Positions 5,120-63,453 of a DNA stretch of 64,000 bases are shown piece after piece. The stretch's first letter is position 1, and each line of letters opens with the position of its first letter. This DNA comes from a plasmid. The stretch is taken from the sequence record NZ_CP123987.1; one strand, 5' to 3'. A program made the position numbers and the translations under genes. Below the pieces are notes generated by a model. The model worked only from the letters and a program-made list of their open reading frames with translations, did not search any database and was not told the DNA's origin.

Positions 5120-5160
5120 TAGCTCCTATTCCTTAGTTTTTGAGGAGTAGGAGCTTTTTT
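5120..5160 (+). terminator. Rho-independent terminator
   Basis: Stem gctcctattcc / ggagtaggagc followed by tttttt. Confidence 0.7.
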
Positions 5161-5177
5161 GCAGGGGAAGATGATGT

Positions 5178-8100
5178 ATGGTTGTTGTATTAAGCGAAAA
5201 AGATAGAAGAGAAATATTTGATACTCTAACTAATAAACAAATAAGAGTTATTAAAAGATATGTATTAGATACAGTAAAATCAGAATTACTAACAAAGTAC
5301 TTTTGGAAAGGAATTAATTGGGACCTAATTGGCTTAGAATATGATCCGTTTTTTCACAAGAAACTTGCTGAGAGAGTGAGTCAGCCGAGACTCTTTTGTT
5401 CAGCATGTGGAAAGCCACTGAAAAATCAGTATATCGTTAAATCAAAACAAACTGGACACATACAAGAACTTGGATCAACCTGTTTATCTGATAGAGCAGG
5501 AATAGATATTCGAATAGTCAAAGAAATTCATAATAGTAGAAAAAGAATTAATCTTTTTCAAGATGAGATTCTTTCTGATTATAGAAATAAGGAGCGATTT
5601 CCGAATAGGATATATAAAGATATTATTGAAATTAATGCTGATAGGTCATGGGGCCCGAAGTTTCGAAGCAAGATATTAGATTTTAAGGGAGCTAACTTAC
5701 CACTTTTCCATAAGGATCATAATAAGCTTCTTAAAGATCTAAGCAATAGGCGAAATGAACTTGATGAAGAAGAACAATTTGGTCATAAAGATAAAGTTAG
5801 AAATAATATTCAAGAATACATTCATTTAAAACGTTATATTAATGAAATTATTCGAAAAGATCGAAGTTTAAATATAATTCGAAAAGAAGAAACATTAAGC
5901 GATGCTTTAGAGAGAATTACTAATATTAATAATAGTATTAATGATGATTTTGCTGTGATACCAATTTCAAAACAAAAAGAACTAGCTAAACAATATATTG
6001 ATCCATTTAATCAGAAATTAAGTCGGATTAGAAAAGTAAAACAAATAGATAGTAAGACTTGGATTGATGAGGCTGTTAAAATAAGTACAACAATTATGAG
6101 TATAGTTCAAGACTTTAATGAGATTAAAGATAAAAGGATAAATGAATATAAGCGTGTTGTTCAAGAGGTTAATGATGTAAGTAAAACTATTCCAGGGAGA
6201 AATCAATATTTTGAACCAGATTTGACCAAAAATATTGATGAAGAAATAGCCTTTTATAAGCAGTATTTGGAAGAGTTGAAGTTAGAAAAAAAGATTATTT
6301 ATTATCCAAAGAATTTAAAGAGGAGGTTGAGTGAAAAGGAAAGCAATCTTAAACGCAATCCAAGTGCAATCCAAGATGATTTAAGTAGAAGTGTGACACT
6401 TCCTGAAAAAGATGCACTAGTAAGATATTACTTATTAAAACAAGGATTTTATCAAGAGTTTACATTAGATGATTTTGATCAAAAAAGTGAAAGTGAACAA
6501 GTACAAATTCTAGAATACGCATCTTTAAAGGCAGAACTTATAAAAGAAATCTATAAATTTGAAATTGAGATTACTGCTAGAAAAAATGCAATGAATAATC
6601 TAATTAATGAAATTAATGGTCTAGCTAAGGGAATGTTAGACGATAGATACATTCATTCAGCAGAGAGGGATAGATACATTAGTACAAAAGTTCTTTATTA
6701 TGATAATAATTATTCAACGACTATACTAAGGCTTAAGAATGAAAAACAAGTTTTAGAAAATTTTGTTGATAAATTTTCAAAATATCCACAGTCTTTGTTA
6801 AATAACTTGGAAGTAGCTAGTGAAAAAATTTATAATGTTCCAAGTGACAGTAGAAGAATCATGCATGAATATGTCAAGCAACTTCATATATATGAAAAAA
6901 ATAGATTGTTAATTGATGATTATAGATTATTACTTGAATATTATTTTATGAAGAGTAAGGAAACTAATGATCTTAAAAAAATTAGTTTTAGTCAAGTAGC
7001 AGAAGTATTGACTAAAGAGCAATTTAAAAAATTAAATCATAAAAATAAATTAAATAGATTACAAGGTATTTATTTAATCAATGGATTAGTAACGGAAATA
7101 AAAAAATATATTATAGATGTTGATCTTGCAAAAAAGATTAAAAGACTTAATGAATTAAGGAAAGAAACTGATGGTAAAAATTATCAAGTACATCATCTTC
7201 CTCAAGAGATTTTGATGAAAGCGGATGTTGATGAAATCAAAGAATATAGCGATAAAATAGACAAGAATATTCAATACAAAGAGTATATTAAAAAGATAGA
7301 AGTACTAATCAACGAAATATATGAATTACAAGAAGAATTATTTGGCAATAATGTAAATCCAATTGATGTCTTAGCAGAACTTCAAAATAATCATAATTTA
7401 AAATTAGCTAAGACTAAATTTAAATCTTTAAGTAATATAAAGGAAGAACTAGAGATTGGACTGAAAAGAACACATAATATTTGGAGAGAGCCAGAATTTG
7501 ATGAAATTAGAACTCCCTTGCATCAGGTGATTGCTGAAAATATATTTATAGAAAAAGAGGATCTTGATACCTTTGAAAGTATTAAACAACAAGCAGAAGA
7601 ATTAGAATTAAGTCTAACTGATAATGAAAAACAAGTAGTAGAATATTTTTTGAGAAAGAAAAAATTTATGGATAGTAGTGGGAAAATCCAACAAAATTTA
7701 TATTTTAATAATATTGATTCAAAAACATTTGAATTAAATAAATTAAGTAGAAAAATTTTTATAGAATATTATGTATTAAAACTGAAGTTAGAAAAATACA
7801 TATACTACTACAATAAACTTGAAAGTAATTCTGCATATATTAGGGAACTTGAAAAAATTATCTCAATGAATGGTAAAATTGTAAAAACTAAGATAAAGAA
7901 AAGTTCTGGAGACCCTGAAGAATTATCAACGCTTTTAAAAGATAACTTGAATATTTTTAGAAGTACAAATAACAACAAATCCCAAGAATATGCATTGATA
8001 TTTAGTGACTACAATAACAAGATAATGAAGATCTTACATCTTTCTAAAAAACAAGGTAATAATCTTGAATTTATTAAAGAATCGATTGAATACTTAATGG

Positions 8101-8474
8101 ATAAATACCAAAGTAAAAAATATCTAGTTAAAAGTAATGCAAAATCTAAAAAATCTAAGTACTTAGATACGTATCAAAATGAACTAGATATTAAGTGGAA
8201 AAAAGATTTAATTGAATCAATGTTTAAAGTTGAAGATGAAATTAATTGGGATAAGGTGAAGTATAAAATTGTTAATTATTTAAGTGATTATCGAATTCAA
8301 ATTAACGACGAATGGAAACAAGAACTAATTAATTTATTATTTGAAATTAATTATAATTATTTTGGGAACTACTTATCTGATTTGAGTAAAGAAAATGAGG
8401 CAGCTTTAATTAATAGGAATATGTTATTTTTAGGTTTTATGAATAACACAATTAAACAATTATCAAAAATGTAA
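5178..8474 (+). CDS. Large hypothetical protein (1098 aa), K/E/N/I-rich; paralogue of the 8557-10992 protein
   Basis: Long uninterrupted ORF with a GGGGAAG RBS. The N-terminal module (FCSACGKPL...GSTCLSD...ANLPLFHKD) and the C-terminal module (NWDKVKYKIVNYL...LINLLFEINYNYFGNYLS) are shared with the next gene. No recognisable catalytic motifs were found. Confidence 0.75.
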   Translation: MVVVLSEKDRREIFDTLTNKQIRVIKRYVLDTVKSELLTKYFWKGINWDLIGLEYDPFFHKKLAERVSQPRLFCSACGKPLKNQYIVKSKQTGHIQELGSTCLSDRAGIDIRIVKEIHNSRKRINLFQDEILSDYRNKERFPNRIYKDIIEINADRSWGPKFRSKILDFKGANLPLFHKDHNKLLKDLSNRRNELDEEEQFGHKDKVRNNIQEYIHLKRYINEIIRKDRSLNIIRKEETLSDALERITNINNSINDDFAVIPISKQKELAKQYIDPFNQKLSRIRKVKQIDSKTWIDEAVKISTTIMSIVQDFNEIKDKRINEYKRVVQEVNDVSKTIPGRNQYFEPDLTKNIDEEIAFYKQYLEELKLEKKIIYYPKNLKRRLSEKESNLKRNPSAIQDDLSRSVTLPEKDALVRYYLLKQGFYQEFTLDDFDQKSESEQVQILEYASLKAELIKEIYKFEIEITARKNAMNNLINEINGLAKGMLDDRYIHSAERDRYISTKVLYYDNNYSTTILRLKNEKQVLENFVDKFSKYPQSLLNNLEVASEKIYNVPSDSRRIMHEYVKQLHIYEKNRLLIDDYRLLLEYYFMKSKETNDLKKISFSQVAEVLTKEQFKKLNHKNKLNRLQGIYLINGLVTEIKKYIIDVDLAKKIKRLNELRKETDGKNYQVHHLPQEILMKADVDEIKEYSDKIDKNIQYKEYIKKIEVLINEIYELQEELFGNNVNPIDVLAELQNNHNLKLAKTKFKSLSNIKEELEIGLKRTHNIWREPEFDEIRTPLHQVIAENIFIEKEDLDTFESIKQQAEELELSLTDNEKQVVEYFLRKKKFMDSSGKIQQNLYFNNIDSKTFELNKLSRKIFIEYYVLKLKLEKYIYYYNKLESNSAYIRELEKIISMNGKIVKTKIKKSSGDPEELSTLLKDNLNIFRSTNNNKSQEYALIFSDYNNKIMKILHLSKKQGNNLEFIKESIEYLMDKYQSKKYLVKSNAKSKKSKYLDTYQNELDIKWKKDLIESMFKVEDEINWDKVKYKIVNYLSDYRIQINDEWKQELINLLFEINYNYFGNYLSDLSKENEAALINRNMLFLGFMNNTIKQLSKM

Positions 8475-8556
8475 AAGAAGCTGATAATAAGATAAGTGCT
8501 GGACATTGTTCAGTGCTTTTTCAAAACTTAAATAATTTTCTGAAGGGGAGCTATGA

Positions 8557-10992
8557 ATGGAGATTTATACATTAACAGATGAAAAAAGACGAAAAATTTT
8601 GTCTAAATTAAAATACAATCAAATTCAAACTTTATCAGATTTCACAATGTATAAAGCAAAGTCAGAAATGATAACGAAAGATTTTGTTATTGCAAATGAC
8701 TGGAAACTTGCTGATATACGAGAAGATGCATTTTGGAATTTAAGATCTATGGATAATAACCAAGGAAAGAAAATTCCTAAATTAAAATGTGAATGTGGTA
8801 AAAATTTAAGATATCAATATATACTTAGATCAAGTAGTGGTAAAGAGCTAAAATTAGGGGTTACACACTTTGCTCAACATGCAGGGATTCCGCAAAATAT
8901 AGCTAGACAAATTCATAGTAGATTAAATAAAGTTATGATTTTTAGAGATGAAATCTTAACAAAATATAGTCAAGGACAGAGATTCCCTTTAGAAGAATAT
9001 AATGTAGTTTCTAAAAAGGGATTGCTGTTAGAATTTGGAGAAGACTTTAATTACAAGTTGAAAAAATTTAAAGATGCTAACTTACCACTATTTCATGTTG
9101 ATGAAAGTAGATTAATGAAAAAATATTTTAAAGCTAAAGAAGCAAACATAACATTGTATAGGATTATAGATGATGAAAATTTTGATGATAAATATTTATT
9201 ATTTAAAGAAACTTTAAATCGATATATTGATTTTTCCGAATTTATAGATACTAAAAGTGATGCTAAATGGTTAAGCAAGACTTTAATTGGTTGTTATGTA
9301 GTAGAACAAAGTATAGAAAATATAATGTTATTTAGTATTGGTAAGACTGGAAAGATTCTAAGAGAAGACTACATAAAAAGAACTAATACTAGATTAAAGA
9401 ATCTCCTGATAGATGAAAACTTCAAGCAAGGATTTATTCGGATTTTAGATGAAATTAAAGATAGTGTGTATGAAAAAGATGAAATAGATATCTTATTACG
9501 CAAAGAAGAAGAAATTTTAATTGATTTAAATGTACTTCAAGTTGAATTATACGGAAAAGATGCAATTCAAGATTCTCAAGATGAACAAACAAAACGTACA
9601 GCCAAAGAAATTGATAGAAATATAAATAGAATAAGAAAAAAGTATGATGAATATACTATTGTAAGAGAAGAGTATCTACAACTGATAAATAGTTATAGAA
9701 GTAAAAATCCTAAACTAGTTAGTAATTTAGAGAAGATTAGTGACGGGCAAATAATATTACCTGCTACTGTTGAAGAAGAATATCCAAAAATGATAGGCAA
9801 ATATAATAATTTACCCAAATTGAATAAAGATGAAAATAAAATAGTTAGATATTTTATGTTGAGACATAAGATAAATATTCCTGGTGAAGGTATAAAACAA
9901 GGGTATTCCTTATCAGCTTCTTTAGATAAATTCAAACGAGTGAAGGACGATGAAGTTAAAAAATTATTATTAGAATATTTAATTTTAAGAGTGAAACTTA
10001 CTGAAAAGATAATAGAATTTAAACAGCAAAATATGCGAGATATGTATTTTAAGGCAGTAAAAATAATTTCTAAATATGACGTTTATTCCTACAAGAAAGA
10101 TAGTAATATCGAATTGTATGATATAGACTTCTTGATTAATAACAGTTCAAATAACACAAATATAAAGTTAGATGAGGATATTAAAGTTTTAAAACCCGAA
10201 TTAGAGTCAATTATAGCTAAATCAAAACAAAAGGATTTGATTAGAGGGATTCTAAATGAATTAGTTAAGATATACAAAAAAACAGAGACACCTACTATGG
10301 ATATATTAAATATTCTTGATAAGATAGTGGCAAGAGAATCAACGTTTTATTATGGTGAGATACATAATTCATCTAATTTATGGAAACAAGAATTCATAAA
10401 TTTTTTGTATAAGGTAAATTATTATTATGTAGGAAATAAGCTTTCAAACGATTTTTTAAAGGTTGATAAGACAATTCTAAACAAGAATTTGGAGTTTCTT
10501 GTATTTATAGATGAAGTCGTTAAACCTGGATTAGAAACAGGGATACTGTCAAAAGAAGAAAGAATTAAAGTACATAGGAAAAAGTTAATCAAAAAAGTTA
10601 AATTAATATATGGAAAAAGTAAAAAATCTAAATCAATATATGGGGAAAATAAAAGAGTTAATAAAGATAAATTAGGAAAGTATTTTTATGGAATAAGAAG
10701 AAATTTAAGTGCAATAGATACGTTATCTGGCTATGGTAACCTTCAAAGAAGCGAACGTACAGAGAAATTGTTATCAAAGAGATTAAATATATCAAGTAAG
10801 AAAGTAGAAATGATTAGGAAGATTTTGGAAAAGTATCCACAGAGAGATTCTGTTGACTTTAAACGAGAGATTGAGTCTCTCCCAATACCTAAAGATATGC
10901 AAGAAAGAATAATTTTCTTTGAGGCAAATAAAAAAGATATACGAGAAATTAAAGATGCTTTTGAGATTAAAAATAAGCTGGTGATAAAATGA
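8557..10992 (+). CDS. Large hypothetical protein (811 aa), paralogue of the 5178-8474 protein
   Basis: Shares KCECGKNL...GVTHFAQH...ANLPLFHVD and the C-terminal FINFLYKVNYYYVGNKLS module with the upstream gene. RBS gaaggggag precedes it. Its stop overlaps the next start (ATGA). Confidence 0.75.
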   Translation: MEIYTLTDEKRRKILSKLKYNQIQTLSDFTMYKAKSEMITKDFVIANDWKLADIREDAFWNLRSMDNNQGKKIPKLKCECGKNLRYQYILRSSSGKELKLGVTHFAQHAGIPQNIARQIHSRLNKVMIFRDEILTKYSQGQRFPLEEYNVVSKKGLLLEFGEDFNYKLKKFKDANLPLFHVDESRLMKKYFKAKEANITLYRIIDDENFDDKYLLFKETLNRYIDFSEFIDTKSDAKWLSKTLIGCYVVEQSIENIMLFSIGKTGKILREDYIKRTNTRLKNLLIDENFKQGFIRILDEIKDSVYEKDEIDILLRKEEEILIDLNVLQVELYGKDAIQDSQDEQTKRTAKEIDRNINRIRKKYDEYTIVREEYLQLINSYRSKNPKLVSNLEKISDGQIILPATVEEEYPKMIGKYNNLPKLNKDENKIVRYFMLRHKINIPGEGIKQGYSLSASLDKFKRVKDDEVKKLLLEYLILRVKLTEKIIEFKQQNMRDMYFKAVKIISKYDVYSYKKDSNIELYDIDFLINNSSNNTNIKLDEDIKVLKPELESIIAKSKQKDLIRGILNELVKIYKKTETPTMDILNILDKIVARESTFYYGEIHNSSNLWKQEFINFLYKVNYYYVGNKLSNDFLKVDKTILNKNLEFLVFIDEVVKPGLETGILSKEERIKVHRKKLIKKVKLIYGKSKKSKSIYGENKRVNKDKLGKYFYGIRRNLSAIDTLSGYGNLQRSERTEKLLSKRLNISSKKVEMIRKILEKYPQRDSVDFKREIESLPIPKDMQERIIFFEANKKDIREIKDAFEIKNKLVIK

Positions 10993-11552
10993 AAAAACTA
11001 ACCATATCATTATTAGCATTAATAACAATTCTTTCCTGTGGAGCTACTACTGTCAGTGCAGCAAGATTTCGAACCTATCGTTATCATACGCCACGTGTGA
11101 GAAGAACACCAAGATACCGAATTCGCAAATCAGAGTATTCTTATAGCCATAAGATGAGTTCTGATCATAACAGCTATAGTCATCATGATAATATGTCGAG
11201 CTATCGTAGTAGCAGCTACTCTAATACAGGGTCGACAGCGACATTTACTGGATCGCAGACAGATGATGTTTTGAATAATCAGATTTCCAAGAAAAAATAT
11301 CGCAATGACTATTATCGTCAAAGTATTATTACAAATCCTTGGATCTGGGCGATGTTAATCAACCATCACGCTAGATATCGTCATAATGAGGAATATACTA
11401 GAGGCTATAATGCAGGTTTTGAAGCTAGTCAGCAAGATAAAAAAGAGGGGACGACTGAGCATCAAACATTATCTAGCGATAAAAGCGCACAACATACTAG
11501 ATACTATCTTCGAGGATATAAGGAAGGATATCGTGACGGAATAAATAGATAA
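10989..11552 (+). CDS. Small secreted Tyr/Arg/Ser/His-rich protein (187 aa)
   Basis: N-terminal signal peptide MKKLTISLLALITILSCGATTVSA/AR. The composition is low complexity with repeated GY..GY motifs. The ATGA overlap with the upstream gene indicates translational coupling. Confidence 0.7.
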   Translation: MKKLTISLLALITILSCGATTVSAARFRTYRYHTPRVRRTPRYRIRKSEYSYSHKMSSDHNSYSHHDNMSSYRSSSYSNTGSTATFTGSQTDDVLNNQISKKKYRNDYYRQSIITNPWIWAMLINHHARYRHNEEYTRGYNAGFEASQQDKKEGTTEHQTLSSDKSAQHTRYYLRGYKEGYRDGINR

Positions 11553-11635
11553 TCATTTGAAGGAAGAAATTAACTAACTTCATGTGGTACATAACTAAGG
11601 CTTCAAAAACTATTAGACAACAGGAGGGGTTAACA

Positions 11636-11737
11636 TGGAAGATTTAGCAGGATGTGTAGGTTGTATTTTTTATATTATTTTAGGATTATTTGGCCTAGCC
11701 TTATTATTCTTTAGTTTGGTTCAAATGTCTTTATAAA
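11636..11737 (+). CDS. Putative 33-aa hydrophobic membrane peptide
   Basis: A strong RBS caGGAGGgg sits 7 nt before the ATG. The product MEDLAGCVGCIFYIILGLFGLALLFFSLVQMSL is a single transmembrane helix. It lies just upstream of a bidirectional terminator and is below the ORF-track size cutoff. Confidence 0.4.
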
Positions 11738-11754
11738 ATTATCTTGTATAACAA

Positions 11755-11800
11755 AACAAAATCCGTCCAATGAACGAAAATTCATTGAACGGATTTGTTT
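11755..11800. terminator. Bidirectional rho-independent terminator
   Basis: Stem atccgtccaatgaa / ttcattgaacggat flanked by an A-run on one side and a T-run on the other. It sits between convergent genes. Confidence 0.75.
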
Positions 11801-13198: not shown

Positions 13199-14289
13199 TT
13201 AACCTTTATAGGGTGTGAATGGTAGGTCTAAACTATCTGCAACAGCCTTGGAAGTAAGGTCTCCTTGGTGTGTATTAATTCCTGTAAGGATTGTGTTGTT
13301 TTCAGCAGCTGCTTTATCAATACCTTTATTAGCAATTTTAATTGCATAATGTACTGTTGCGCTGGAAAGTGCTTCTGTCGCTGTCTTTGGAACAGCACCA
13401 GGCATGTTAGCAACTGTGTAATGAATAACATCATGTGTTACATAGATTGGATCTTCGTGAGTTGTTGTTCTCACTGTTATTTCGAAGATACCACCTTGGT
13501 CGATAGGAATATCAACGATAACAGAACCAGGTTTCATGTTTTTAACCATTTCTTCTGTAACTAATTTTGGTGCCTTAGCTCCTGGGATTAGAACAGCACC
13601 AACTACTAAGTCAGCTTCTTCAACAACTTTCTTGATGTTAGCAGTATTAGACATTAAAGTTTGAATCTTTCCATCGAAAATATTGTCGATTTCGGCTAAG
13701 TGTTGAGCATTAATATCAAGGATTGTAACTTGTGCGCCCATACCAACAGCGATCTTAGCAGCGTTGAAACCTACAGTACCACCACCGATAATAGCAACTT
13801 TACCGCGATGTACACCGGAAACACCACTCAAAAGAATACCTTTGCCACCATGTGCTTGTTCTAAGAAATGAGATCCAACTTGGATTGACATACGGCCAGC
13901 GATTAGAGAAGTGGAAGTCCGCCGCCTCTACCAATCATTGTTTCGTATGCTACCCCTGTAACCTTCTTTTCGATTAAGGCTTCTGTTAATGGTTTATCTG
14001 CGGCCAAGTGAAGATAAGTATAGATGATTTGGCCTGGTTTGAAGTATTGGTATTCATTTTCCAAAGGTTCTTTAACTTTGATGACCATTTCTGTGTCCCA
14101 TGCTTCTTCTGCTGAACCCATCTTTGCACCAGCAGCGATGTATTCTTTATCTGGAAAACCGGAGCCAACCCCAGCTCCTTTTTCGACAATTACTGAATGG
14201 CCTGCATGAACTAAGCTTGCTACAGCACTTGGAGTAGCACCAACACGTTCTTCTTGCTTCTTGATTTCTTTAGGTACACCGATTAACAT
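13199..14289 (-). pseudogene. ald: Alanine dehydrogenase disrupted by a small deletion/frameshift
   Basis: The N-terminal part (MLIGVPKEIKKQEERVGATP...VAYETMIGRGGGLPLL) and C-terminal part (MSIQVGSHFLEQAHGGKGILL..., NAD-binding GGGTVGFNAA) lie in different frames. They are separated by a stop near 13891-13905, and about 6 residues (APMSEV-like) are missing. Confidence 0.75.
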
Positions 14290-14826
14290 AATAGGATACT
14301 CCTTTCCAAATAATGAATAAATATTCAAATAATTTCTCGTTTTTTGTTGATAGCGCTTTCAATCTAATACAAGAATAACACTTAAAAAGATAAATATCAA
14401 CCCTAAAATTCAAAGTTTGTGAAATCTAATTTGCCTTTAATTAGCGTGTTTTGGGAGTTTTTCACAAAGTTGATTTTATCCTGTTATTTATAAATCAACA
14501 TTAGAGTGATTATTAGAGAATAAGAAAATATACATTAAATGTATAATTAGTTTGCGGTTAGATTTAGCTAAGTAAATAAATTTAAAATATATTGGACGGG
14601 ATATTTAAAGGAATTTAAAAAAGATAGAATATTAAACTATTAAAAAAATAGATAAATAAAGAAACCTTGATTTAATAATCTCATTATTTTTTAAGGCTGA
14701 GTAGAGGGAAATGTAGATATTGGTCGCTTTTTATGATGATTTTGCTTATCTAAAAAATAAAATAGCACCTTATTTTTACCACAATATACAATATAGGTAA
14801 AGATAAGATGCCTTTTTACTAATATT

Positions 14827-18985: not shown

Positions 18986-21900
18986 GTGAGAGTAGTGTAT
19001 ACAAATAATTTTGAATATAACAATGAAGCAATAAAAGATTTTGCAGATTTTGGTAAAAAAGCAGAAAAATATATCTATCAGTCTCCACAAGATGCATTAA
19101 CAGCTTTTAGAACTTTAGGGGAAGCATTATTAAATGATATCTATGAAAAAGATCGAATTTTTGTGGAAATAAGAGTTACTGCTAGCGAATACAGCACACA
19201 AGATAAAAAAATTAAGTTATTATCTACATATAATAGAAAAATAGGTGAAGTTTATTATCCTGAAAATATCATCAATAACTTCAAAACTATTAAAAATACA
19301 GGAAATATTGCTGCACATAATATTAAAAGTAAGTTTTTTACAGTAGAAAAGGCCTTAGAAATAGAAAAGGTTATGTATAAAATCTGGTCTTGGTATCTTG
19401 AAATTTATACAAGTGAGGAATGTTTACCTTACGTTAAGCCGGAAAATACAGCTGTCAATAATGATGAAGAGTTAAAAGATGAAGTTGATAAATTAAAAAA
19501 GAAAATCGAAGAACTGAAAAAACGTAATGAACAACAGAAAGAAAAAGTGGATAGTTCTAAGAAACAAGAACGTCAAAGTCGAAGTAGAAAATATCAACAA
19601 ACTCATGATTTATCAGAAGAAGAAACACGAGAAATCATTGATCAACAATTACGTGATGCTGGTTGGGAAGCAAATACTAAGAAGTTAAATAACAATAAAA
19701 ATAAAAATAAAACACTTCCTAAAAAAGGTAAGAGAATGGCAATTGCTGAATGGGTACTTTCTAACGGTAAACGTGCTGATTATGCTTTATTTGAAGGTTT
19801 GAATTTAGTTGGAGTGGTGGAAGCAAAAGAATGGGGAAAGGACATTCCTGGTGATCTTACTCAAGCTAAAGAGTACGCTAAGTTAATTACAAAGGATCCT
19901 GATGTGTATAACCTAGTTGTTAAAGATGATGCTACTTATAAAGTGCCTTTTATCTATTCTACTAATGGCCGTCCTTATATCAGACAATATAAGTCTAAAT
20001 CTGGTATTTGGTACTTAGATACACGTAATCTTAATAATCATGCCAAACCATTACAAGCTTGGCATTCACCAGACGATTTAAAGTTAAAACTAAGTGCAAA
20101 GCCAGAAAAAGAAGCTAACGAAGACTTAAAAAATGAAAGTATGTTAAGTTTTGCTAATCGCTACTATCAAGTAGAAGCTATTAGAGCAGTAGAAAATGCG
20201 ATTATTGATGGTAAGAAAAGAATTCTGTTACAGATGGCAACAGGTACTGGTAAGACACGTACTGCAATTGCATTAATGTACCACTTATTAAAGGCTAAAA
20301 AAGCCAGAAGAATTTTATACCTTGTAGATAGGAATTCTTTGGGACGTCAAACTGAAGATACGCTTAAAAATCTAAAAGTAGACGCAACTTCAATTGCTGA
20401 TATTTATGGAGTTAAAGCTTTAAGTGGTGGAAAGGTAGAGAAGGACACTAAAATTCATATCGCAACAGTGCAAAGTATGATAAGTCGCCTATTTAGTGGA
20501 ATAAATTATTTAGTGGAATAAATAATGATGAAAGTGTTACGGTAGGAACTTATGATTTTATCATTGTTGACGAAGCTCATCGCGGTTATGCTTTGGATCG
20601 AGATATGAGAGAAGGCGATGAAAGAATCTATGATGAACAAGACTATGTCAGTCAATATCGTCGTGTAATAGACTTTTTTGACGCAACTTCAATTGCTATG
20701 ACTGCCACACCTGCCAAACATACAGTAGAGATATTTGGTAGTCCAATCTATTCATATAGTTATCGTCAAGCAGTACTTGATGGGTGGTTGATCGATCATG
20801 ATACACCTTATGTTTTTAAAACAGAATTGTCAGAAAATGGTATAAACTTTGAAGTCAATGAAGACGTAACTGTATATGATAGTGAAAAAAATACCATCTC
20901 AACGGAAACTTTAGATGAAAATATGAATTTTGATGTTAGTCAGTTTAATCGTCGCGTAATTGCCAATGATTTTAATCGCGTAATTGCAGAAAAATTAACT
21001 GAATACATTGATCCAACTGATGAAATGGCTGGTAAAACTCTAATTTTTGCAGTTACTGATAAGCATGCGGATGATTTTGTAATTGCTTTGAAAGATGCTT
21101 ATGAAAAAGCAGGTATTCCAGTGCCGGATGATGCTATTCAAAAGATTACTGGGCAAACATATGAATATGGTCAGGCAATAAAGAACTTTAAAAATGAAAC
21201 TTATCCAAATATTGTTGTAACTGTAGATTTATTAACAACTGGAATTGATGTTCCGGAAATCACTAACATTGTCTTTTTAAGGCAGGTACGTTCGCGTATT
21301 TTATACGAACAAATGATTGGTCGTGCTACACGTCCATGTGAAAAGATTCAAAAAGATCATTTCAATATTTATGATGCGGTTGGAATCTACGATAAGATGA
21401 AGAGCGTGTCTAATATGAATATGGTAGTAAAAGATCCTAATCATAATCTAGATTATTATGTTAATAAGACAAATCCTTTAGATTATGAAGATGAAGCAGA
21501 TTATGAAACTTATCGAGAAGATCTTCTTGCTACTATACAAAGAAAGATTAAACGAATCCCTGAAGACAAATTATCTGAATTTTGTGATTTTGCTAAGATT
21601 AATTCGACAAATGAATGGACACAATCTATAAAGAATATGTCTAAAGAAGAGTTGTCGCAAGAGATGCCAAAAATTGCAAAATTAGCCAGTTTTAAATATA
21701 ACGATGCCAAGATGATTATTTCAGATAAAGAAGATAGGTTTAAAAATGTGGACCGATCATATGGAGATAGTGGTAAAAAGCCAGAAGATTATCTGGAAAG
21801 TTTTAATCAATATATCCAAAATAATCAAAATGAATTGCTCGGTTTAGAGATTATTAAAACTCGTCCGCAAGATTTATCTTTATCGGAACTGAAAGAAATT

Positions 21901-22290
21901 GTATTAACGTTGAGTCAATATGGTTATAATGAGAGAGATTTGCAAAATGCTTGGAAGAAAGTTAAAGGCGAACAAACTGCTGCAAGTATCATTAGTTTTA
22001 TCAGACAAGCAATGATGACAACTGATAGACTAGAAGATCATGAGGCAATGGTAAATAGAGCGATGAATAAAGTTTATGGTATGACCGAATGGACAGTTAT
22101 GCAAAGAAAATGGTTAGACAAAATTGCTAAACAATTAAAGCAAAATGAAGTTTTAGGTAAAAATGCTCAACAAGCTTTTGATACAATTCCAGCTTTTAAG
22201 AGTAATGGTGGTTATAATCGAGTGAATAAATTACTTGATGGCAAAGCTGATGAAATTATCAAAATTATTAATGAAAATTTATATGCTTAG
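18986..22290 (+). pseudogene. hsdR: Type I restriction enzyme R subunit HsdR, interrupted by a 17-bp tandem duplication
   Basis: Helicase motif I QMATGTGKTRTAIAL lies in ORF 1. DEAHRGY, motif VI QMIGRATRP and a C-terminal domain lie in ORF 2 (20593-22290) in another frame. Removing one copy of tatttagtggaataaat restores ...SRLFSGINNDESVTVGTYDFIIVDEAHRGY.... Confidence 0.85.
20490..20523 (+). repeat. Perfect 17-bp tandem duplication (tatttagtggaataaat x2) inside hsdR
   Basis: Two adjacent copies are read directly from the sequence. Length 17 is not a multiple of 3, so the duplication causes a frameshift. Confidence 0.9.
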
Positions 22291-22305
22291 AAAAGGAAGA
22301 AGAAA

Positions 22306-23757
22306 GTGAACAATCAAGAAATTGTAGCGAAGTTATGGAATGAAGCAAATGTATTACGTGATGATGGAATTACTTATCAAGATTACGTAACCGAATTAAC
22401 GTATATTTTATTTTTAAAGATGAGTAAGGAACAAGGTCAAGAAGATGATATTCCTGAAAAATATCGTTGGGATAGTTTAGTAGAAAAAGATGGACTTGAA
22501 TTGAAGAACTTCTATCGTCAATTATTAATAGATTTAGGCAATCCTGAGATCGTTAAGAACAATAAAATTAACTTAATTTATAGTAATGCTTCAACAAGTA
22601 TTGATGAACCAGCTAATTTAGAAAAAATAATCAAAGATATTGATGAACTTGACTGGTTTTCAGCACGTGAAGAAGGTCTAGGTGCTTTATATGAAGGATT
22701 GTTAGAGAAAAACGCCAGTGAAACTAAATCAGGTGCCGGACAATACTTTACTCCACGTGTTTTAATCAATGTTATGGTTAAGTTGATGAAACCACAAGTA
22801 GGCGAAAGATTGAATGATCCAGCTGCTGGAACTTTTGGATTTATGATTGCTGCTAATCAATATCTTCGTGATCAAACAGATGATTATTTTGATTTGACTG
22901 ATGATCAACAAAAATTTGAGATAGAAGAAGCATTTTCTGGTATGGAATTAGTACCAACAACCCACCGTTTAGCGATGATGAATGAGTATCTACATGGTAT
23001 GGATGGCAAGTTAGAACTTGGTGATTCTTTATCTGCCAATGGGAAATGGATGAAAGATTATGACTTAGTATTAACTAATCCACCATTTGGAACTAAAAAG
23101 GGTGGTGAACGTGCTACTCGTGATGATTTAACTTTTGAAACTTCAAATAAGCAATTGAACTTCTTACAAACGATTTATAATTCGTTGAAGAAGAATGGTA
23201 AAGCACGTGCAGCAGTTGTTGTGCCAGATAATGTTCTGTTTGCGGATGGGGTAGGAGAAGAAATTCGTAAGGACTTATTGAATAAGTGTAATTTGCATAC
23301 AATTTTGCGCTTGCCAACAGGAATTTTCTACGCTCAAGGTGTACAAACTAATGTGTTGTTCTTTACTCGTGGTGAAAGCGATAAAGAAAATACCAAAGAA
23401 ACTTGGATTTACGATATGCGCAATAATATGCGTTCATTCGGTAAGCGTAGTCCGTTAAATGATAAGGACTTTACTGATTTTATCGAAAAATACCAAGCTG
23501 ATGATATGAGTAAGCGACAAGAAGATTATGATAGTCAAAGTAATCCTAATGGTCGTTGGCGTAAATTTACGATTGATGAAATTATGGCACGTCCTAATAC
23601 AAGCCTAGATATTTCTTGGATGACTGAAGAAAGCGACGAAGAAGATAAGTCATTGAGTGAAATCTTAGTAGAAATGAACGAAAAATCAATGACAATCTCA
23701 GCAGCTATTGCAGAGTTAACAGATATTTTGGAAGGGATAGATGATAGTGAAGAATAG
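22306..23757 (+). CDS. hsdM: Type I R-M DNA methyltransferase subunit HsdM
   Basis: Motif I DPAAGTFGF and motif IV LTNPPFGTKKGG. GTG start. The gene overlaps the hsdS start. Confidence 0.9.
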   Translation: MNNQEIVAKLWNEANVLRDDGITYQDYVTELTYILFLKMSKEQGQEDDIPEKYRWDSLVEKDGLELKNFYRQLLIDLGNPEIVKNNKINLIYSNASTSIDEPANLEKIIKDIDELDWFSAREEGLGALYEGLLEKNASETKSGAGQYFTPRVLINVMVKLMKPQVGERLNDPAAGTFGFMIAANQYLRDQTDDYFDLTDDQQKFEIEEAFSGMELVPTTHRLAMMNEYLHGMDGKLELGDSLSANGKWMKDYDLVLTNPPFGTKKGGERATRDDLTFETSNKQLNFLQTIYNSLKKNGKARAAVVVPDNVLFADGVGEEIRKDLLNKCNLHTILRLPTGIFYAQGVQTNVLFFTRGESDKENTKETWIYDMRNNMRSFGKRSPLNDKDFTDFIEKYQADDMSKRQEDYDSQSNPNGRWRKFTIDEIMARPNTSLDISWMTEESDEEDKSLSEILVEMNEKSMTISAAIAELTDILEGIDDSEE

Positions 23758-25234
23758 CAGTTTGAGTGTCGATACAGAAAAGTTACGTAAGAAAATTCTA
23801 GATTTGGCGATGCGTGGGAAATTGGTTCCACAAGATAGCCAAGATGAGCCAGCAAGTGTCTTATTAGAGAAGATAAAAGAAGAAAAGGCTCAATTAATCA
23901 AAGAAAAGAAAATCAAGAAATCTAAACCACTTCCAGAAATCACAGAAGAAGAAAAGCCTTTTGAAATTCCAGAAAGTTGGGAATGGGTAAGGTTAGGGGA
24001 AATATTAGATGTTAGAGATGGTACGCATGACACACCAAAATATTTAGATTCAGGTGTTCCACTAATAACAGCTAAAAATTTAGACAATGGAAGCATAGAT
24101 TTTAACAATGTAAATTATATTTCTTTTGAAGATGCGAAAAAAATAAATCAACGTTCGAAAGTTGATAAAGATGATATTATCTTTGCAATGATAGGAACTA
24201 TTGGAAATCCTGTATTAGTTCAAGAAGAATATAGCATGGCTATAAAAAATGTTGCGTTGTTAAAGAAAATTTATTATCTCAATATGAAATATATTTTAAG
24301 ATGTATACAATTTTCAGAAAATAGGATGTATAAGAAGTCCAATGGTGGAAATCAGAAATTTATTTCATTGAAAAAGATACGAGAATTCACAATCCCTCTC
24401 CCACCATTAGCCGAACAAAAGCGTATTGTTGCTAAAGTCGAAGAATGTATGCAGGCAATTAAGACAATTGAAGACAGTAGCAAAGAATACGAAAAGCTGG
24501 AAAATCAATTGGATAAGAAAGTACTTGATTTGGCGATGCGTGGAAAATTAGTCCCAAAAGATAGCCAAGATGAACCAGCAAGTGTCCTATTAGAGAAGAT
24601 TAAAGAAGAAAAAGCTCAATTAATCAAAGAAAAGAAGATTAAAAAATCTAAGCCACTTCCAGAAATCACAGAAGAAGAAAAGCCTTTTGAAATTCCGGAA
24701 AGTTGGGAATGGGTAAGGTTAGGGGAAGTGGCTAAAAATGAGTTATACTCAATGGCTGATGGGCCTTTTGGCAGTAATTTAAAAAAAGATCATTATACAC
24801 TTAGTCAAGAAGTTAGGATTATTCAATTAAGTAATATAGGCGAAGATGGCTGGCGTAATGAAAATAAAAAATATACTACATTTGATCATTTGAAAGAAAT
24901 TTCAAGAAGTGAAGTAAAAAGTGGTGATATTGTTATTGCTAAAATGATGCCAGCTGGAAGAGCCATTATAGTTCCTGACATAGAGAAAAAATATGTTTTA
25001 TCGTCAGATGCCGTTAAATTTATTCCAGATACTAGAATTTTCAAGCCATATATGTTGCATTTAATCAATAGTCCAGTATTTAAAAAGCAAGTGCAATCAG
25101 ATTTACAAGGTTCTACACGACCAAGAACAAGTATAACAAAGCTTAAAAATATTTTGTGCCCTCTCCCACCATTAGCTGAACAAAAGCGGATTGTTACTAA
25201 AATTGAAGAAATAGATATATATTTAAAAAATTAA
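23741..25234 (+). CDS. hsdS: Type I R-M specificity subunit HsdS with two target-recognition domains
   Basis: Two target-recognition domains are each preceded by the near-identical LDLAMRGKLVP.DSQDEPASVLLEKIKEEKAQLIKEKKIKKSKPLPEITEEEKPFEIPESWEWVRLGE segment. The PLPPLAEQKRIV motif occurs twice. Confidence 0.85.
   Translation: MIVKNSSLSVDTEKLRKKILDLAMRGKLVPQDSQDEPASVLLEKIKEEKAQLIKEKKIKKSKPLPEITEEEKPFEIPESWEWVRLGEILDVRDGTHDTPKYLDSGVPLITAKNLDNGSIDFNNVNYISFEDAKKINQRSKVDKDDIIFAMIGTIGNPVLVQEEYSMAIKNVALLKKIYYLNMKYILRCIQFSENRMYKKSNGGNQKFISLKKIREFTIPLPPLAEQKRIVAKVEECMQAIKTIEDSSKEYEKLENQLDKKVLDLAMRGKLVPKDSQDEPASVLLEKIKEEKAQLIKEKKIKKSKPLPEITEEEKPFEIPESWEWVRLGEVAKNELYSMADGPFGSNLKKDHYTLSQEVRIIQLSNIGEDGWRNENKKYTTFDHLKEISRSEVKSGDIVIAKMMPAGRAIIVPDIEKKYVLSSDAVKFIPDTRIFKPYMLHLINSPVFKKQVQSDLQGSTRPRTSITKLKNILCPLPPLAEQKRIVTKIEEIDIYLKN
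23795..24727 (+). repeat. Pair of ~205-bp direct repeats (23795-24003 and 24519-24727, >90% identical) inside hsdS
   Basis: The nucleotide-level repeat is seen directly in the sequence. Confidence 0.8.
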
Positions 25235-25559: not shown

Positions 25560-26354
25560 ATGACTAAAAATACCATTAATAAGATTATATATTTTGATAA
25601 AGAAACTATTCGTAATATACTCCAGGAAAGAGATAGAGGAGAACTTACACGAAAAACTGATATATCTTCTAATTTACAGACAGAAGGATCGGTAAAGTCA
25701 GAAGGTTCAGCTAAATTAAAGCTCAATGTTCCGCTAATTTCAAGATTATCTTTTTTATTTACAGGGAATATAAAAGCATCATATTTTTTTAATAAGGATA
25801 GTGTAACTACAATTTCTTCAACAGAAATTTCTGAATTTGAACAATTAAAACCACTATTAGAAGTTCTTCGAGACACCCAGATATCGGATATTGAAAATTC
25901 TTCTACGTTTTTACGTGTAGCTGGTGGATATCTTAAAATCATTAAAGGTGGTATCGAAGGGGTAGATACACAAGAGTTTAAGTCCGTTATGGATAGCTAT
26001 GATGGATACGATACATACAAAGTAAGTGATGAAAAGTACGTTCGTTTTAACAATTCTGCCTTTGTGAGCAATTACAAAAGGAATGATTTACTTACTACAA
26101 CAATGACGTTATATTGTATTCCAGTAGGTAAGTTTGATAAAAAGCGCTTTGATTTTATTAAAGAAGTTGGGAAAATGGAACGTCTAATTACTTCAACAGA
26201 GAAATCAGATGTATTATCGGATATATACCCTCCTAAAGATCAATTTTTAAATGAACACGTTGAAAATCATGTTGATGATGAAAAAGATAATTTAATAACA
26301 CTTTATGATGTAATTTATGCTTGTATTATATCGGAGGTGGAAAATGGAAACTAA
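25560..26354 (+). CDS. Hypothetical protein (264 aa), partner of the downstream AAA+ ATPase
   Basis: Strong RBS aaggag 7 nt before the ATG. It overlaps the downstream gene. No known domain. The sequence is AT-rich. Confidence 0.6.
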   Translation: MTKNTINKIIYFDKETIRNILQERDRGELTRKTDISSNLQTEGSVKSEGSAKLKLNVPLISRLSFLFTGNIKASYFFNKDSVTTISSTEISEFEQLKPLLEVLRDTQISDIENSSTFLRVAGGYLKIIKGGIEGVDTQEFKSVMDSYDGYDTYKVSDEKYVRFNNSAFVSNYKRNDLLTTTMTLYCIPVGKFDKKRFDFIKEVGKMERLITSTEKSDVLSDIYPPKDQFLNEHVENHVDDEKDNLITLYDVIYACIISEVENGN

Positions 26355-27465
26355 TATGAGAAATTATCACATTGTTATTGGTTCAAAAAGATATTTTGAC
26401 GAATATTTACCAGATTTTAAGGAAGAAGATATTGTATATGATTTTTCAGATTCAATAAAACTTTCTGATGCGTTTAGAGAAAGTGGAAGAATAAACGATC
26501 ATTTTGTTAGTATACTCGTTGTAAGAAATAATAATTATAATGGAATTGTTGAAAATGCCCATGATCGTTTGGGCCCATTAATTGAAGAATTAACAACAAA
26601 TAGTGCTGAAATATATATTCATAATCCGCCTCGTATTTTGATGAAGTATTTAGAAGAACAGCATGAGCGTTTACCAATAAAATTATCTATTTCAAGTGAA
26701 AAATATGAAATAAATAGAGATCCTAATATATTTATAAATAATATTAAAGAAATCTCGTCACATATATTAGGTCAGCAGTCAGCTCTTACAGAAATAAGCA
26801 AGAGCTTGTGGTATCTCACAACGGTTAAAAGAGAGAAGCCATATGTAATAATGTTGTATGGTAATAGCGGGCTTGGAAAAACTGAATTGGTAAGAGAGAT
26901 TGCAAAAAAATTCTTTGATGGAAAATTTTTGGAAAAACACTTATCTATGTTTAAAAATGATAATTATACAAATTATTTTTTTGGAGATAAACCTAATCGA
27001 CGTAGTATAGGATTTGATTTGTTAGAACGCGAATCTAACTTAATTTTTTTTGATGAATTAGATAAATGTCCAGAATATTTCTTTTCTACATTCTACACAT
27101 TATTTGATAATGTTCAATTTAAGGATTCTACCTATGATGTAAATGTATCAGGAACTGTAATTATACTCACTTCTAACTATAATTCGAAAGAAGAAATGCA
27201 AGAAAAACTAGGACTGCCTATTTTTTATCGTATTGATAAATTTATTCATTTTAATGAATTTAATTGTAATACTATATACAGAATTGTTCAAAATGAAATT
27301 TCGGAAAGAAAAGCTGAATATAATGATAAAATTTCTCCAGATGCAATATATGCTGCTGTTAGTCCACTTGTTTCAACATCAGGAGAAAATGCTCGAACAA
27401 TAAAATATAAGGTTCAGCAAGTAATAGAGGATCTTCTATTCGAAGAAATACACGAAAAATTTTAG
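26344..27465 (+). CDS. Clp-D2-like AAA+ ATPase with an unknown ~170-aa N-terminal domain
   Basis: An RBS ggaggtgg precedes the ATG at 26344. ILGQQSALTEI...VIMLYGNSGLGKTELVREIAKK matches the sensor/Walker A region of ClpA/B D2. Walker B is LIFFDELDKC. Confidence 0.7.
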   Translation: METNMRNYHIVIGSKRYFDEYLPDFKEEDIVYDFSDSIKLSDAFRESGRINDHFVSILVVRNNNYNGIVENAHDRLGPLIEELTTNSAEIYIHNPPRILMKYLEEQHERLPIKLSISSEKYEINRDPNIFINNIKEISSHILGQQSALTEISKSLWYLTTVKREKPYVIMLYGNSGLGKTELVREIAKKFFDGKFLEKHLSMFKNDNYTNYFFGDKPNRRSIGFDLLERESNLIFFDELDKCPEYFFSTFYTLFDNVQFKDSTYDVNVSGTVIILTSNYNSKEEMQEKLGLPIFYRIDKFIHFNEFNCNTIYRIVQNEISERKAEYNDKISPDAIYAAVSPLVSTSGENARTIKYKVQQVIEDLLFEEIHEKF

Positions 27466-62073: not shown

Positions 62074-63453
62074 ATGATGACAAAACTTTTAATTACTAAC
62101 TATGAGCGGAATGTTTTGATTAATAGCTATCTTTTAAAAAATACACCTGAATTGGATGATATCAGAAGATTGCTTGTACATAATAAACATATCAGTGAAA
62201 ATGATGTGTCAACTGAAATGGCTAGAAGGATCAAGAAGCATAAAGCTGATTGGTTAAGAGTTACATATTTGGACTTAACAAAAGATAAAAGTAGGAGTTC
62301 GTATTATGTAAAAAATGGTGAAAAATTTACGTGCTATTTTTGTAATAAACCTTTGACATCAAAAGCTTATTTTGTTACTGATAAGGATGACAAAGTTTTT
62401 CAGGTTGGTTCAGAATGTGTAAAAAAAATAGCCAATCCAGAATTTATGATTAATTCACAATTGGCTAAAAACTCTAGAGAGCAAAAACGGTTAGAAAAAT
62501 TACAAGCAAATTATCCAGAAGCTATTGAAGTAGCAAAATATAATGTGTTAGCTATTAGATATATGTTCAAATTGGTTTTAAGCAAGAAAGAGTTGGATAA
62601 ATTACAAAATATAGTTAAGAAATGTCACAATATAGTCCGTAGGTATATTAGTGGAAAAGGTAGTGGAACAGGGGATTTGAGTCTTTACACAAAGGAGTTC
62701 AATAGATATAAAAATTGGTTGATGAATTATCACACAGATAATCTAGATACACCATCGAGATTTCCCACTTCTATACTAACAAACATGATTATTACAGGTC
62801 AAAAAGATGAAGCAAATAAGATATATGATAATGTTAGTAAAAGTGATGGAATTATTACTAATGATATAGCTATTAAAATTAAAAATGAAGAATTTTTAAA
62901 TTGGTGTCTATCAAATATGCTAAGATTTGATGGATATGAAAAACATAAGATAACGGTATCGAAGTTTGGTGAATTTAATATGGTAGTTGGTAAAAGACGC
63001 AATAATTATTGGTATAAAGTTGATTCTTCTATCATGTTAAGGATGGCAAATTATCCCAAAATAAAGCCATTGTCAGTCGAACGATTATCATTATTAAAAG
63101 ATGGAATGATTCCAACTCCTGAAACACGTAAAAAATTGATAGCAGATTTCATATTGTTATTAAACAATAATAAATTCCACATATACCATCCAAATTTAAA
63201 AAGGTTATCTGACAGAAATTACAGAAAATATTCTAATAATATATATGTATATTCGAATAAAGGAGATTTAGCGATTTTTAGTATTGATGATATTTTAAAT
63301 AAAATAATGTTAGATTATATTACTACACCAAATTCTGTTAAATTAAACATACACAACCTCGTAGATAATGCGAATAAAATTACTGTAAAAGAATTGACAC
63401 AACAAATTGAAAAAGATATACAAATTGACCAATCAATAAAGGAATTATTTTAA
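62074..63453 (+). CDS. Hypothetical protein (459 aa) sharing the Cys-containing N-terminal module of the giant paralogues
   Basis: FTCYFCNKPL...VGSECVKKI aligns with FCSACGKPL...LGSTCLSD (5178 gene) and KCECGKNL...GVTHFAQH (8557 gene). K/N/I-rich composition. Confidence 0.7.
   Translation: MMTKLLITNYERNVLINSYLLKNTPELDDIRRLLVHNKHISENDVSTEMARRIKKHKADWLRVTYLDLTKDKSRSSYYVKNGEKFTCYFCNKPLTSKAYFVTDKDDKVFQVGSECVKKIANPEFMINSQLAKNSREQKRLEKLQANYPEAIEVAKYNVLAIRYMFKLVLSKKELDKLQNIVKKCHNIVRRYISGKGSGTGDLSLYTKEFNRYKNWLMNYHTDNLDTPSRFPTSILTNMIITGQKDEANKIYDNVSKSDGIITNDIAIKIKNEEFLNWCLSNMLRFDGYEKHKITVSKFGEFNMVVGKRRNNYWYKVDSSIMLRMANYPKIKPLSVERLSLLKDGMIPTPETRKKLIADFILLLNNNKFHIYHPNLKRLSDRNYRKYSNNIYVYSNKGDLAIFSIDDILNKIMLDYITTPNSVKLNIHNLVDNANKITVKELTQQIEKDIQIDQSIKELF

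Follow-up and report, generated by a model that had tools for sequence, protein, structure and literature searches.

The Bacillus subtilis genes yeeA (dnmA), yeeB and yeeC encode an MmeI-type methyltransferase, a DEAD/ResIII helicase and a T5orf172/GIY-YIG protein. The same trio opens a 64,000-nucleotide stretch of the plasmid record NZ_CP123987.1 (the window). Sequence matching assigns the whole of this stretch to a repA-type megaplasmid of Ligilactobacillus salivarius, a relative of pMP118. Our subject is the three open reading frames (ORFs) downstream of this trio, all on the + strand and lying outside the described yeeABC cassette: ORF1 (5178–8474; 1098 amino acids), ORF2 (8557–10992; 811 amino acids) and ORF3 (10989–11552; 187 amino acids), the lengths being those given by the first-pass annotation. 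Their nearest annotated copy is on pBNS11 (NZ_CP089851.1), where ORF1 is 97% identical and all three genes are labelled ‘hypothetical protein’. Other described groups invite comparison: the Bacillus cereus-group plasmid proteins named after DUF3895 (PF13034) or pXO2-34 (PF17362), both Pfam families of unknown function; the McrB-type restriction ATPases, whose relatives carry a variable DNA-binding domain at the N-terminus; and the classical C2H2 zinc fingers. ORF1 and ORF2 belong to a previously undescribed protein family that is recognized by an N-terminal domain of ~190 residues (N-domain). The DUF3895 and pXO2-34 proteins, which have the same N-domain, are the only true relatives bearing any label, and the resemblances to the McrB N-terminal domain and to fingers of the C2H2 or CoiA type are analogies rather than memberships. 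What is new is the protein family and its fold; the three genes are at most a putative ‘system’.

The N-domain spans residues 1–190 of ORF1 (5178–5747, +) and 1–195 of ORF2 (8557–9141, +). When 1.84 billion cluster representatives were searched exhaustively with a profile of the domain, at least 360 of them matched at E ≤ 1e-3 and 283 at E ≤ 1e-10, and the domain starts no more than 30 residues from the N-terminus in 144 of 152 matches. The two window copies align with the family profile over positions 2–189 (ORF2, E 7e-64; ORF1, E 5e-62), scores that are partly by construction because both N-domains entered the profile build; the independent evidence is the 360 other members (profile A2). All members with a named source organism come from Bacilli, the genera being Ligilactobacillus, Lacticaseibacillus, Vagococcus, Enterococcus, Lactococcus, Bacillus, Priestia and Alicyclobacillus. 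They are labelled either ‘hypothetical’ or after another domain that they carry (DUF3895; AAA family ATPase), and their median length is 341 amino acids, the outliers being the L. salivarius proteins and a single protein of 1472 amino acids. Only 3 proteins were retrieved when the N-domain alignment was used in a word-indexed homology search, and a scan of a genome collection with a weak pattern gave one locus. Literature searches on DUF3895, on the protein accessions and on the megaplasmid region found nothing relevant, and within the library searched neither DUF3895 nor the family is mentioned in any paper. A confidently folded domain of ~190 residues, present in at least 360 clusters across Lactobacillales and Bacillales yet lacking a family assignment, a fold neighbour and a literature, is an uncommon gap in such well-studied bacteria.

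The conserved positions of the N-domain center on a predicted zinc knuckle. Two cysteines (145/147 and 147/147 sequences) and a histidine or cysteine (147/147) are essentially invariant, accompanied by a Trp (145/148), an Arg (138/144), a Gln (138/146), an Asp (141/146), a Gly and the Pro of an ‘[AV][ND]LPL’ motif. The ANLPLFH[KV]D motif that had been noticed in both large proteins is indeed found in each. The fourth putative ligand is His in 69% and Glu in 16% (together about 84%). ORF2 has the canonical form, C78-E-C80-G ... H104-F-A-Q-H108 (8788–8880, +), which is predicted to fold as a β-hairpin followed by a helix. ORF1 displays a minority form, C74-x2-C77 ... C102, with an Arg at the fourth position (+4) and no fourth ligand. 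The CxxCG motif had been ascribed to both proteins, but ORF2 has C-x-C-G instead.

An AlphaFold2 model of ORF2 residues 1–200, computed from a 47-sequence alignment, reached a predicted local distance difference test score (pLDDT) of 90.1 and a predicted template modelling score of 0.83. In this model, two helices are followed by a β-hairpin, a second hairpin bearing the Cys pair, a short helix bearing the His pair, and a bundle of ~5 helices; no similar fold was found for it. The placement of two cysteines on a predicted β-hairpin and of H-x3-H on the next helix in ORF2 is reminiscent of the classical C2H2 finger. However, the spacing is C-x-C-x23-H-x3-H as against the classical C-x2-4-C-x12-H-x3-5-H, and unlike in the classical finger the knuckle is embedded in a helical domain of ~190 residues. 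The HF(A)xH signature also resembles that of the N-terminal zinc finger of CoiA (C-x2-C ... H-F-A-H). Neither the Pfam zinc-finger models nor the CoiA models match ORF1 or ORF2.

Beyond the N-domain the family is strikingly heterogeneous, 42 of 121 C-terminal regions being singletons. Among 105 family representatives, 20 carry DUF3895, three pXO2-34 and one CoiA_C. DUF3895 itself constitutes just the last ~70 residues of those Bacillus proteins (246–316 of 317), which at ~300 amino acids are far shorter than the 800–1100 of ORF1 and ORF2, and its model has no match in either window protein at E ≤ 0.1; pXO2-34 is likewise missing from both. One member, the 957-amino-acid P0163 of Vagococcus xieshaowenii, bears the N-domain ahead of an McrB-like AAA_5 domain and McrB_lid. 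This likeness to McrB is positional only. ORF1 and ORF2 have no nucleoside triphosphatase (NTPase) domain. The 370 bp available beside P0163, up to the contig end, hold no ORF and hence no McrC partner. We considered recurrent NTPase fusions as a feature of the family and dropped the idea, since the ‘STAND’ and multiple ‘AAA’ matches all came from P0163.

ORF1 and ORF2 are tandem paralogues, related along most of their length. By BLASTP, residues 1–188 are 34% identical (E 2e-27), and a 48-residue NY/YF-rich module is 42% identical between ORF1 1046–1093 and ORF2 609–656 (E 9e-9). Profiles of the two proteins, each built from its L. salivarius alleles, extend the homology considerably: ORF1 1–463 aligns with ORF2 2–490 (E 1.8e-55), and ORF1 704–1095 aligns with ORF2 314–658 (E 1.5e-12, probability 97.7%). 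ORF2 314–490 thus matches two places in ORF1, which implies the internal duplication of a module in the latter. Self-comparison of ORF1 detects its repeats weakly (hhalign probability ~3%), the two-place alignment with ORF2 being the stronger signal. The middle module, LTxxEKQVVEYFLRK ... IEYYVLKLKLEKYI in ORF1 (residues ~808–887; 7599–7838, +), is shared with ORF2 residues ~420–497 (9814–10047, +), where it is invariant across alleles that differ by more than 50%; weaker further copies lie at ORF1 ~400–481 and ~537–620. The C-module, recognized by BLASTP, begins WKQELINLLFEINYNYFGN... in ORF1 (residues 1043–1093; 8304–8456, +), which also has a partial internal duplicate of it at residues 989–1018. 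In ORF2 it begins WKQEFINFLYKVNYYYVGN... (residues 606–656; 10372–10524, +). The common NY/YF module had been placed at the C-terminus of both proteins; the module is real, but in ORF2 it is not terminal, 155 residues following it. This C-terminal extension (657–811; 10525–10989, +), which occurs neither in ORF1 nor in the 663-amino-acid ORF2 alleles, comprises a stretch rich in Lys, followed by a short helical unit, the sole part outside the N-domain modelled at a pLDDT of 70–80. Because of the profile alignments, the internal duplication and this extension, the earlier picture of conserved ends around completely diverged, hypervariable middles proves too simple. A third, solitary homologue of the N-terminal module had also been proposed at 62074. 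Among all six-frame ORFs of the window, the family profile finds ORF1 and ORF2 alone. The ORF at 62074–63453 (+; 459 amino acids) is thus no homologue of them: it has a CxxC...C motif but no family match, and BLASTP gives a mere E 0.008 against ORF1 and nothing against ORF2. It corresponds to WP_147655628.1, a ‘hypothetical protein’ in plasmid pR1, where a DUF805 gene comes next.

The statement that no known domain occurs in the three proteins withstood searches against Pfam, NCBIfam, PHROGs (none at E < 0.01), PADLOC-DB v2.0.0 (5027 models; none at E ≤ 0.1) and the sequences of the PDB, the last with the single sequences as well as two profiles. Library scans of 22 ORF2 alleles returned nothing consistent; a KorB match in 4 of them (E 0.0095) was set aside as too weak. 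No NTPase model of Pfam or PADLOC matches ORF1 or ORF2. They show neither the AAA_5 domain and Walker motifs of McrB-type/AAA+ proteins nor the ABC-type ATPase head with a long antiparallel coiled coil of SMC/Rad50-like proteins. Outside the N-domain, each protein consists of a basic, predicted all-helical body made up of partly duplicated modules, and the relatives of these bodies are confined to L. salivarius. A full-length model of ORF2 is all-helical but unreliable (pLDDT 43.7), and we claim nothing from it.

Both proteins are basic (ORF1, rich in Lys, Leu, Ile, Glu and Asn, isoelectric point 9.0; ORF2, 9.4) and neither has a signal peptide or a hydrophobic or membrane segment, their maximum 19-residue hydropathy being 0.85 and 1.26; they are therefore cytoplasmic. 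The first-pass annotation had suggested a surface or surface-exclusion role, that is, a diversifying system that would display ORF1 and ORF2 at the cell surface alongside a secreted ORF3. The signal peptide of ORF3 and the ATGA overlap between its gene and ORF2 would suit such an arrangement. However, besides the missing export signals, ORF1 and ORF2 contain no LPXTG or other wall-anchor motif, and ORF3 remains 90–100% identical among plasmids between which ORF1 and ORF2 fall to 35–50%, a lack of co-variation that speaks equally against a functional partnership with the secreted protein. The ATGA coupling itself is genuine in the window but allele-specific, being replaced by a 23-nucleotide gap in pBNS11. 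We consider a surface system scarcely credible.

ORF3 has, as had been noted, an N-terminal hydrophobic signal sequence (residues 4–22, hydropathy 2.0), and by inspection L-S-C17 fits a relaxed lipobox and VSA24 an A-x-A site. Its mature part (isoelectric point 9.9) is rich in Ser, Arg, Thr, Tyr and His and has two C-terminal RGYxxGY/F motifs. The protein is known only from L. salivarius megaplasmids (29 records). We infer that it is a separately conserved exported protein, possibly lipid-anchored, which would be co-transcribed with ORF1 and ORF2 but probably functions independently of them.

In every L. salivarius copy, the locus has a variable restriction slot on one side and, on the other, the conserved flank formed by ORF3 and a permease gene. 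In the window, in pBNS11 and in several metagenomic contigs, the slot holds the MmeI-type methyltransferase/helicase/T5orf172 cassette, and in pMP118 and one contig (L021) it holds a type III Mod/Res system, so that in these strains ORF1–ORF3 follow type III restriction instead. ORF1 and ORF2 thereby stand at the downstream edge of a slot that exchanges different restriction cassettes between strains. The earlier placement of the locus in horizontally exchanged, defence-rich DNA is supported. Two extra genes are found between ORF3 and the permease gene in pMP118 (L002, 18357–22415) and in NZ_CP123972.1, encoding a 925-amino-acid double-AAA ATPase resembling the IetA/TRIP13 models and a 416-amino-acid ‘zinc-finger-containing protein’; the downstream side of the locus is therefore also an insertion point.

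The genes flanking the locus are 93–99% identical between plasmids. Against this background, the alleles of ORF1 are 97%, ~84% or ~41% identical to the window copy, and those of ORF2, visibly mosaic, are 98, 86, 83, 47–53 or 35–40% identical; an ORF1 recombinant is also represented (P0029). Synonymous divergence (dS) between allele classes is 1.1–1.5, compared with 0.04–0.27 for the flanking genes, and the ratio of nonsynonymous to synonymous substitution rates (dN/dS) is 0.19–0.31 for ORF1, 0.29–0.34 for ORF2 and 0.07–0.09 for ORF3. Given the high dS relative to the flanks and a dN/dS of 0.19–0.34, the variation reflects old alleles that have been shuffled by recombination under moderate purifying selection, and the two genes are neither rapidly diversifying nor dead. 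The locus is also a clear natural case of a slot for the exchange of restriction cassettes, next to which the flanking genes persist as ancient mosaic alleles.

The view that both large genes are functionless mosaics in decay, imported remnants kept only by linkage to the restriction slot and ORF3, could draw on the base composition and on the many disrupted or rearranged versions. The GC content of 24–27% over 6–11 kb is the minimum of the window and bears out the AT-richness reported earlier. Structural variants include a single gene of 841 amino acids, an arrangement of 392, 393 and 400 amino acids, and a shortened form of ~550. In pMP118, ORF2 is frameshifted and split into 112 and 685 amino acids, and several plasmid records have no annotated gene under the family match, consistent with pseudogene calls. 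However, the constraint on amino acid sequence is evident even between alleles with saturated synonymous divergence, ORF2 alleles more than 50% different still have blocks of invariant residues in common, and intact reading frames of 1098 and 811 amino acids occur in many independent assemblies. Decay therefore seems to us a very improbable account. The variant with the three shorter genes comes from a metagenomic contig (L025, 2191–4577), in which two tandem family genes of ~392 amino acids are followed by the 400-amino-acid gene and an ORF3 homologue. It sits after the same helicase/T5orf172 cassette, and tandem duplication of family genes recurs across variants.

To place the window proteins in the wider family, we sampled ~19 contexts of its members, the figures being raw counts. 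In 8 of the ~19 the family gene lies beside restriction or defence genes, which supports the suspected association of relatives with defence islands. One member adjoins a Wadjet JetC/JetD system, and others come directly after an SNF2 helicase, ahead of a 1467-amino-acid ResIII+Eco57I enzyme, after BREX genes and a PLD-SNF2 helicase, and ahead of a GmrSD-like gene and a DrmD-like helicase. Another follows an McrBC-like pair, an McrB-like AAA_5 protein and its PDDEXK partner, that matches the PADLOC candidate PDC-M26A, and on a ParM plasmid-like contig 6 kb separate a family gene from a second MmeI/helicase/T5orf172 cassette. The fusion in P0163 was also counted among the eight. In this small sample, members next to defence genes tend to be the longer ones.

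We tentatively propose that the N-domain binds nucleic acid and that these proteins are accessory components of the helicase/NTPase restriction modules next to which they are encoded, a reading that we regard as possible while holding it at well under even confidence. On this proposal, ORF1 and ORF2 would act in the cytoplasm as a sensor, recruiter or regulator for the neighbouring restriction-type modules, the variable helical body would provide a specificity or interaction surface, and expression would come about via read-through of the terminator of the upstream cassette. The repeated position beside such modules, be they type III, MmeI-type, McrBC-like, GmrSD-like, BREX-linked or Wadjet, offers a testable lead on restriction accessory components, to which the McrB-like fusion adds weight. 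Several observations weigh against it. No homology supports nucleic-acid binding, and the zinc site could equally be structural or serve protein contacts. While the median isoelectric point of the N-domain is 9.1, about 13 of 47 N-domains are acidic. The defence adjacency is a raw count over only ~19 contexts. ORF1 and ORF2 are often shortened, fused or frameshifted in L. salivarius, so the plasmid can do without them. Between them and the upstream cassette stands a strong terminator, and the full-length ORF2 model is unreliable. Moreover, members occur in plasmid or mobile-element backbones with no adjacent defence genes (Enterococcus, Bacillus, Lactococcus, Alicyclobacillus and two metagenomic contigs) and in housekeeping contexts (nrdI/nrdEF, tsaB-rimI-tsaD, upp-glyA, a two-component system, and a site between glycogen phosphorylase and HU-HIG genes).

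These latter contexts would suit proteins of plasmid or chromosome DNA management outside defence, in which a DNA-binding N-domain would serve organization, maintenance or regulation and the defence genes would adjoin merely because both gather in the variable regions of mobile elements. Members from Bacillus, Alicyclobacillus and elsewhere lie near genes for ParM, ParA, ParB, FtsK/relaxase and HU. In annotated collections, tblastn matched Bacillota plasmids only, except for two short unannotated Listeria ‘phage’ records, and no L. salivarius megaplasmid bearing ORF3 lacks a family gene (each search gave 29 records). Stand-alone 217-amino-acid members also occupy a conserved housekeeping position: in four metagenomic contigs (L023, L027, L031 and L034; GC ~37%) the gene lies directly 3′ of nrdI and opposite nrdE/nrdF, and is followed by an 86-amino-acid gene. 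The N-domain can therefore occur on its own, in a housekeeping setting. The frequent frameshifts, truncations and fusions in L. salivarius argue against essential maintenance, and the 35–50% identity between alleles of one species would be unusual for backbone genes, given their nearly uniform flanks. In pMP118, moreover, the replication and partition genes are ~30 kb away. On balance we judge DNA management a rather unlikely explanation.

The enrichment of the family on plasmids raises another possibility, namely plasmid-borne counter-defence, with the helical body blocking host restriction NTPases and the allelic diversity recording an arms race. The extreme diversity of the C-terminal regions and the deep divergence of the L. 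salivarius alleles would accord with this, as would the position of the Enterococcus and Bacillus plasmid genes in co-oriented runs of small unknown genes, the Bacillus runs lying just 3′ of the FtsK/relaxase module. On the other hand, some members are chromosomal, residing in housekeeping loci or within host defence islands (BREX, GmrSD), and one is fused to an McrB-like ATPase. The dN/dS values are well below 1, the proteins are basic rather than acidic DNA mimics, and a motif scan of viral contigs found no family member. Counter-defence is accordingly an unlikely reading.

How the genes are expressed bears on the proposal of restriction accessory components. The upstream trio, of which the methyltransferase gene is cut by the window start, was identified with Pfam and PADLOC models and is closed by an intrinsic-terminator-like hairpin of 16 pairs with a T run (5121–5155, +), confirming the terminated YeeABC-like cassette described earlier. 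The yeeABC trio is discussed in PMC7261158. The ORF1 start codon follows the hairpin after only 22 nucleotides (5156–5177), an interval that accommodates no promoter-like site; hence ORF1–ORF3 are probably transcribed by read-through of the cassette's terminator. The hairpin may accordingly make expression dependent on read-through, or may play the role of an attenuator. At the other end, a 17-pair hairpin with T runs on both strands (11759–11796) acts as a terminator in both directions, serving the convergent amino-acid permease gene as well. An Rfam scan found no RNA family anywhere in the window. We had entertained the abundant long noncoding RNA of pMP118 as a feature of the locus and dropped it, as that RNA sits at LSL_1885.

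The last ORF before the bidirectional terminator is a putative hydrophobic one of 33 codons, MEDLAGCVGCIFYIILGLFGLALLFFSLVQMSL (11635–11736, +), preceded by a strong ribosome-binding site, AGGAGGGG; it could encode a small membrane peptide or a toxin-like peptide. With this peptide included, a bolder scheme can be drawn, in which a new class of defence proteins in Bacilli would have the N-domain in common as its nucleic-acid-recognition module and ORF1–ORF2–ORF3 would make up a new, self-contained anti-phage or anti-plasmid system. If so, the sensors of invading DNA or phage proteins would be the giant helical paralogues, and the effector would be either the exported, basic ORF3 or the membrane peptide of 33 residues. 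We think this scheme quite improbable.

The remainder of the first 27 kb of the window is likewise defence-rich. A type I restriction-modification cluster occupies 18986–25234 (+), with HsdM at 22306–23757 and HsdS at 23741–25234. HsdR is distributed over two ORFs, 18986–20521 (ResIII) and 20593–22290 (Helicase_C and EcoEI_R_C), so that a frameshift is probable. Further downstream (25560–27465, +), the gene for a DUF6414 protein (264 amino acids) overlaps that for an AAA ATPase (382 amino acids). A pair of the same DUF6414/AAA type is present in the defence island beside one family member, P0074 (L015, 10513–12171), and it may be a two-gene defence candidate. Between these clusters and the ORF1–ORF3 locus, the alanine dehydrogenase gene is split on the − strand (13199–14328), the C-terminal domain being encoded at 13199–13891 and the N-terminal domain at 13903–14328; in pMP118 it is a single gene of 367 amino acids, and the split suggests a frameshift or a pseudogene.

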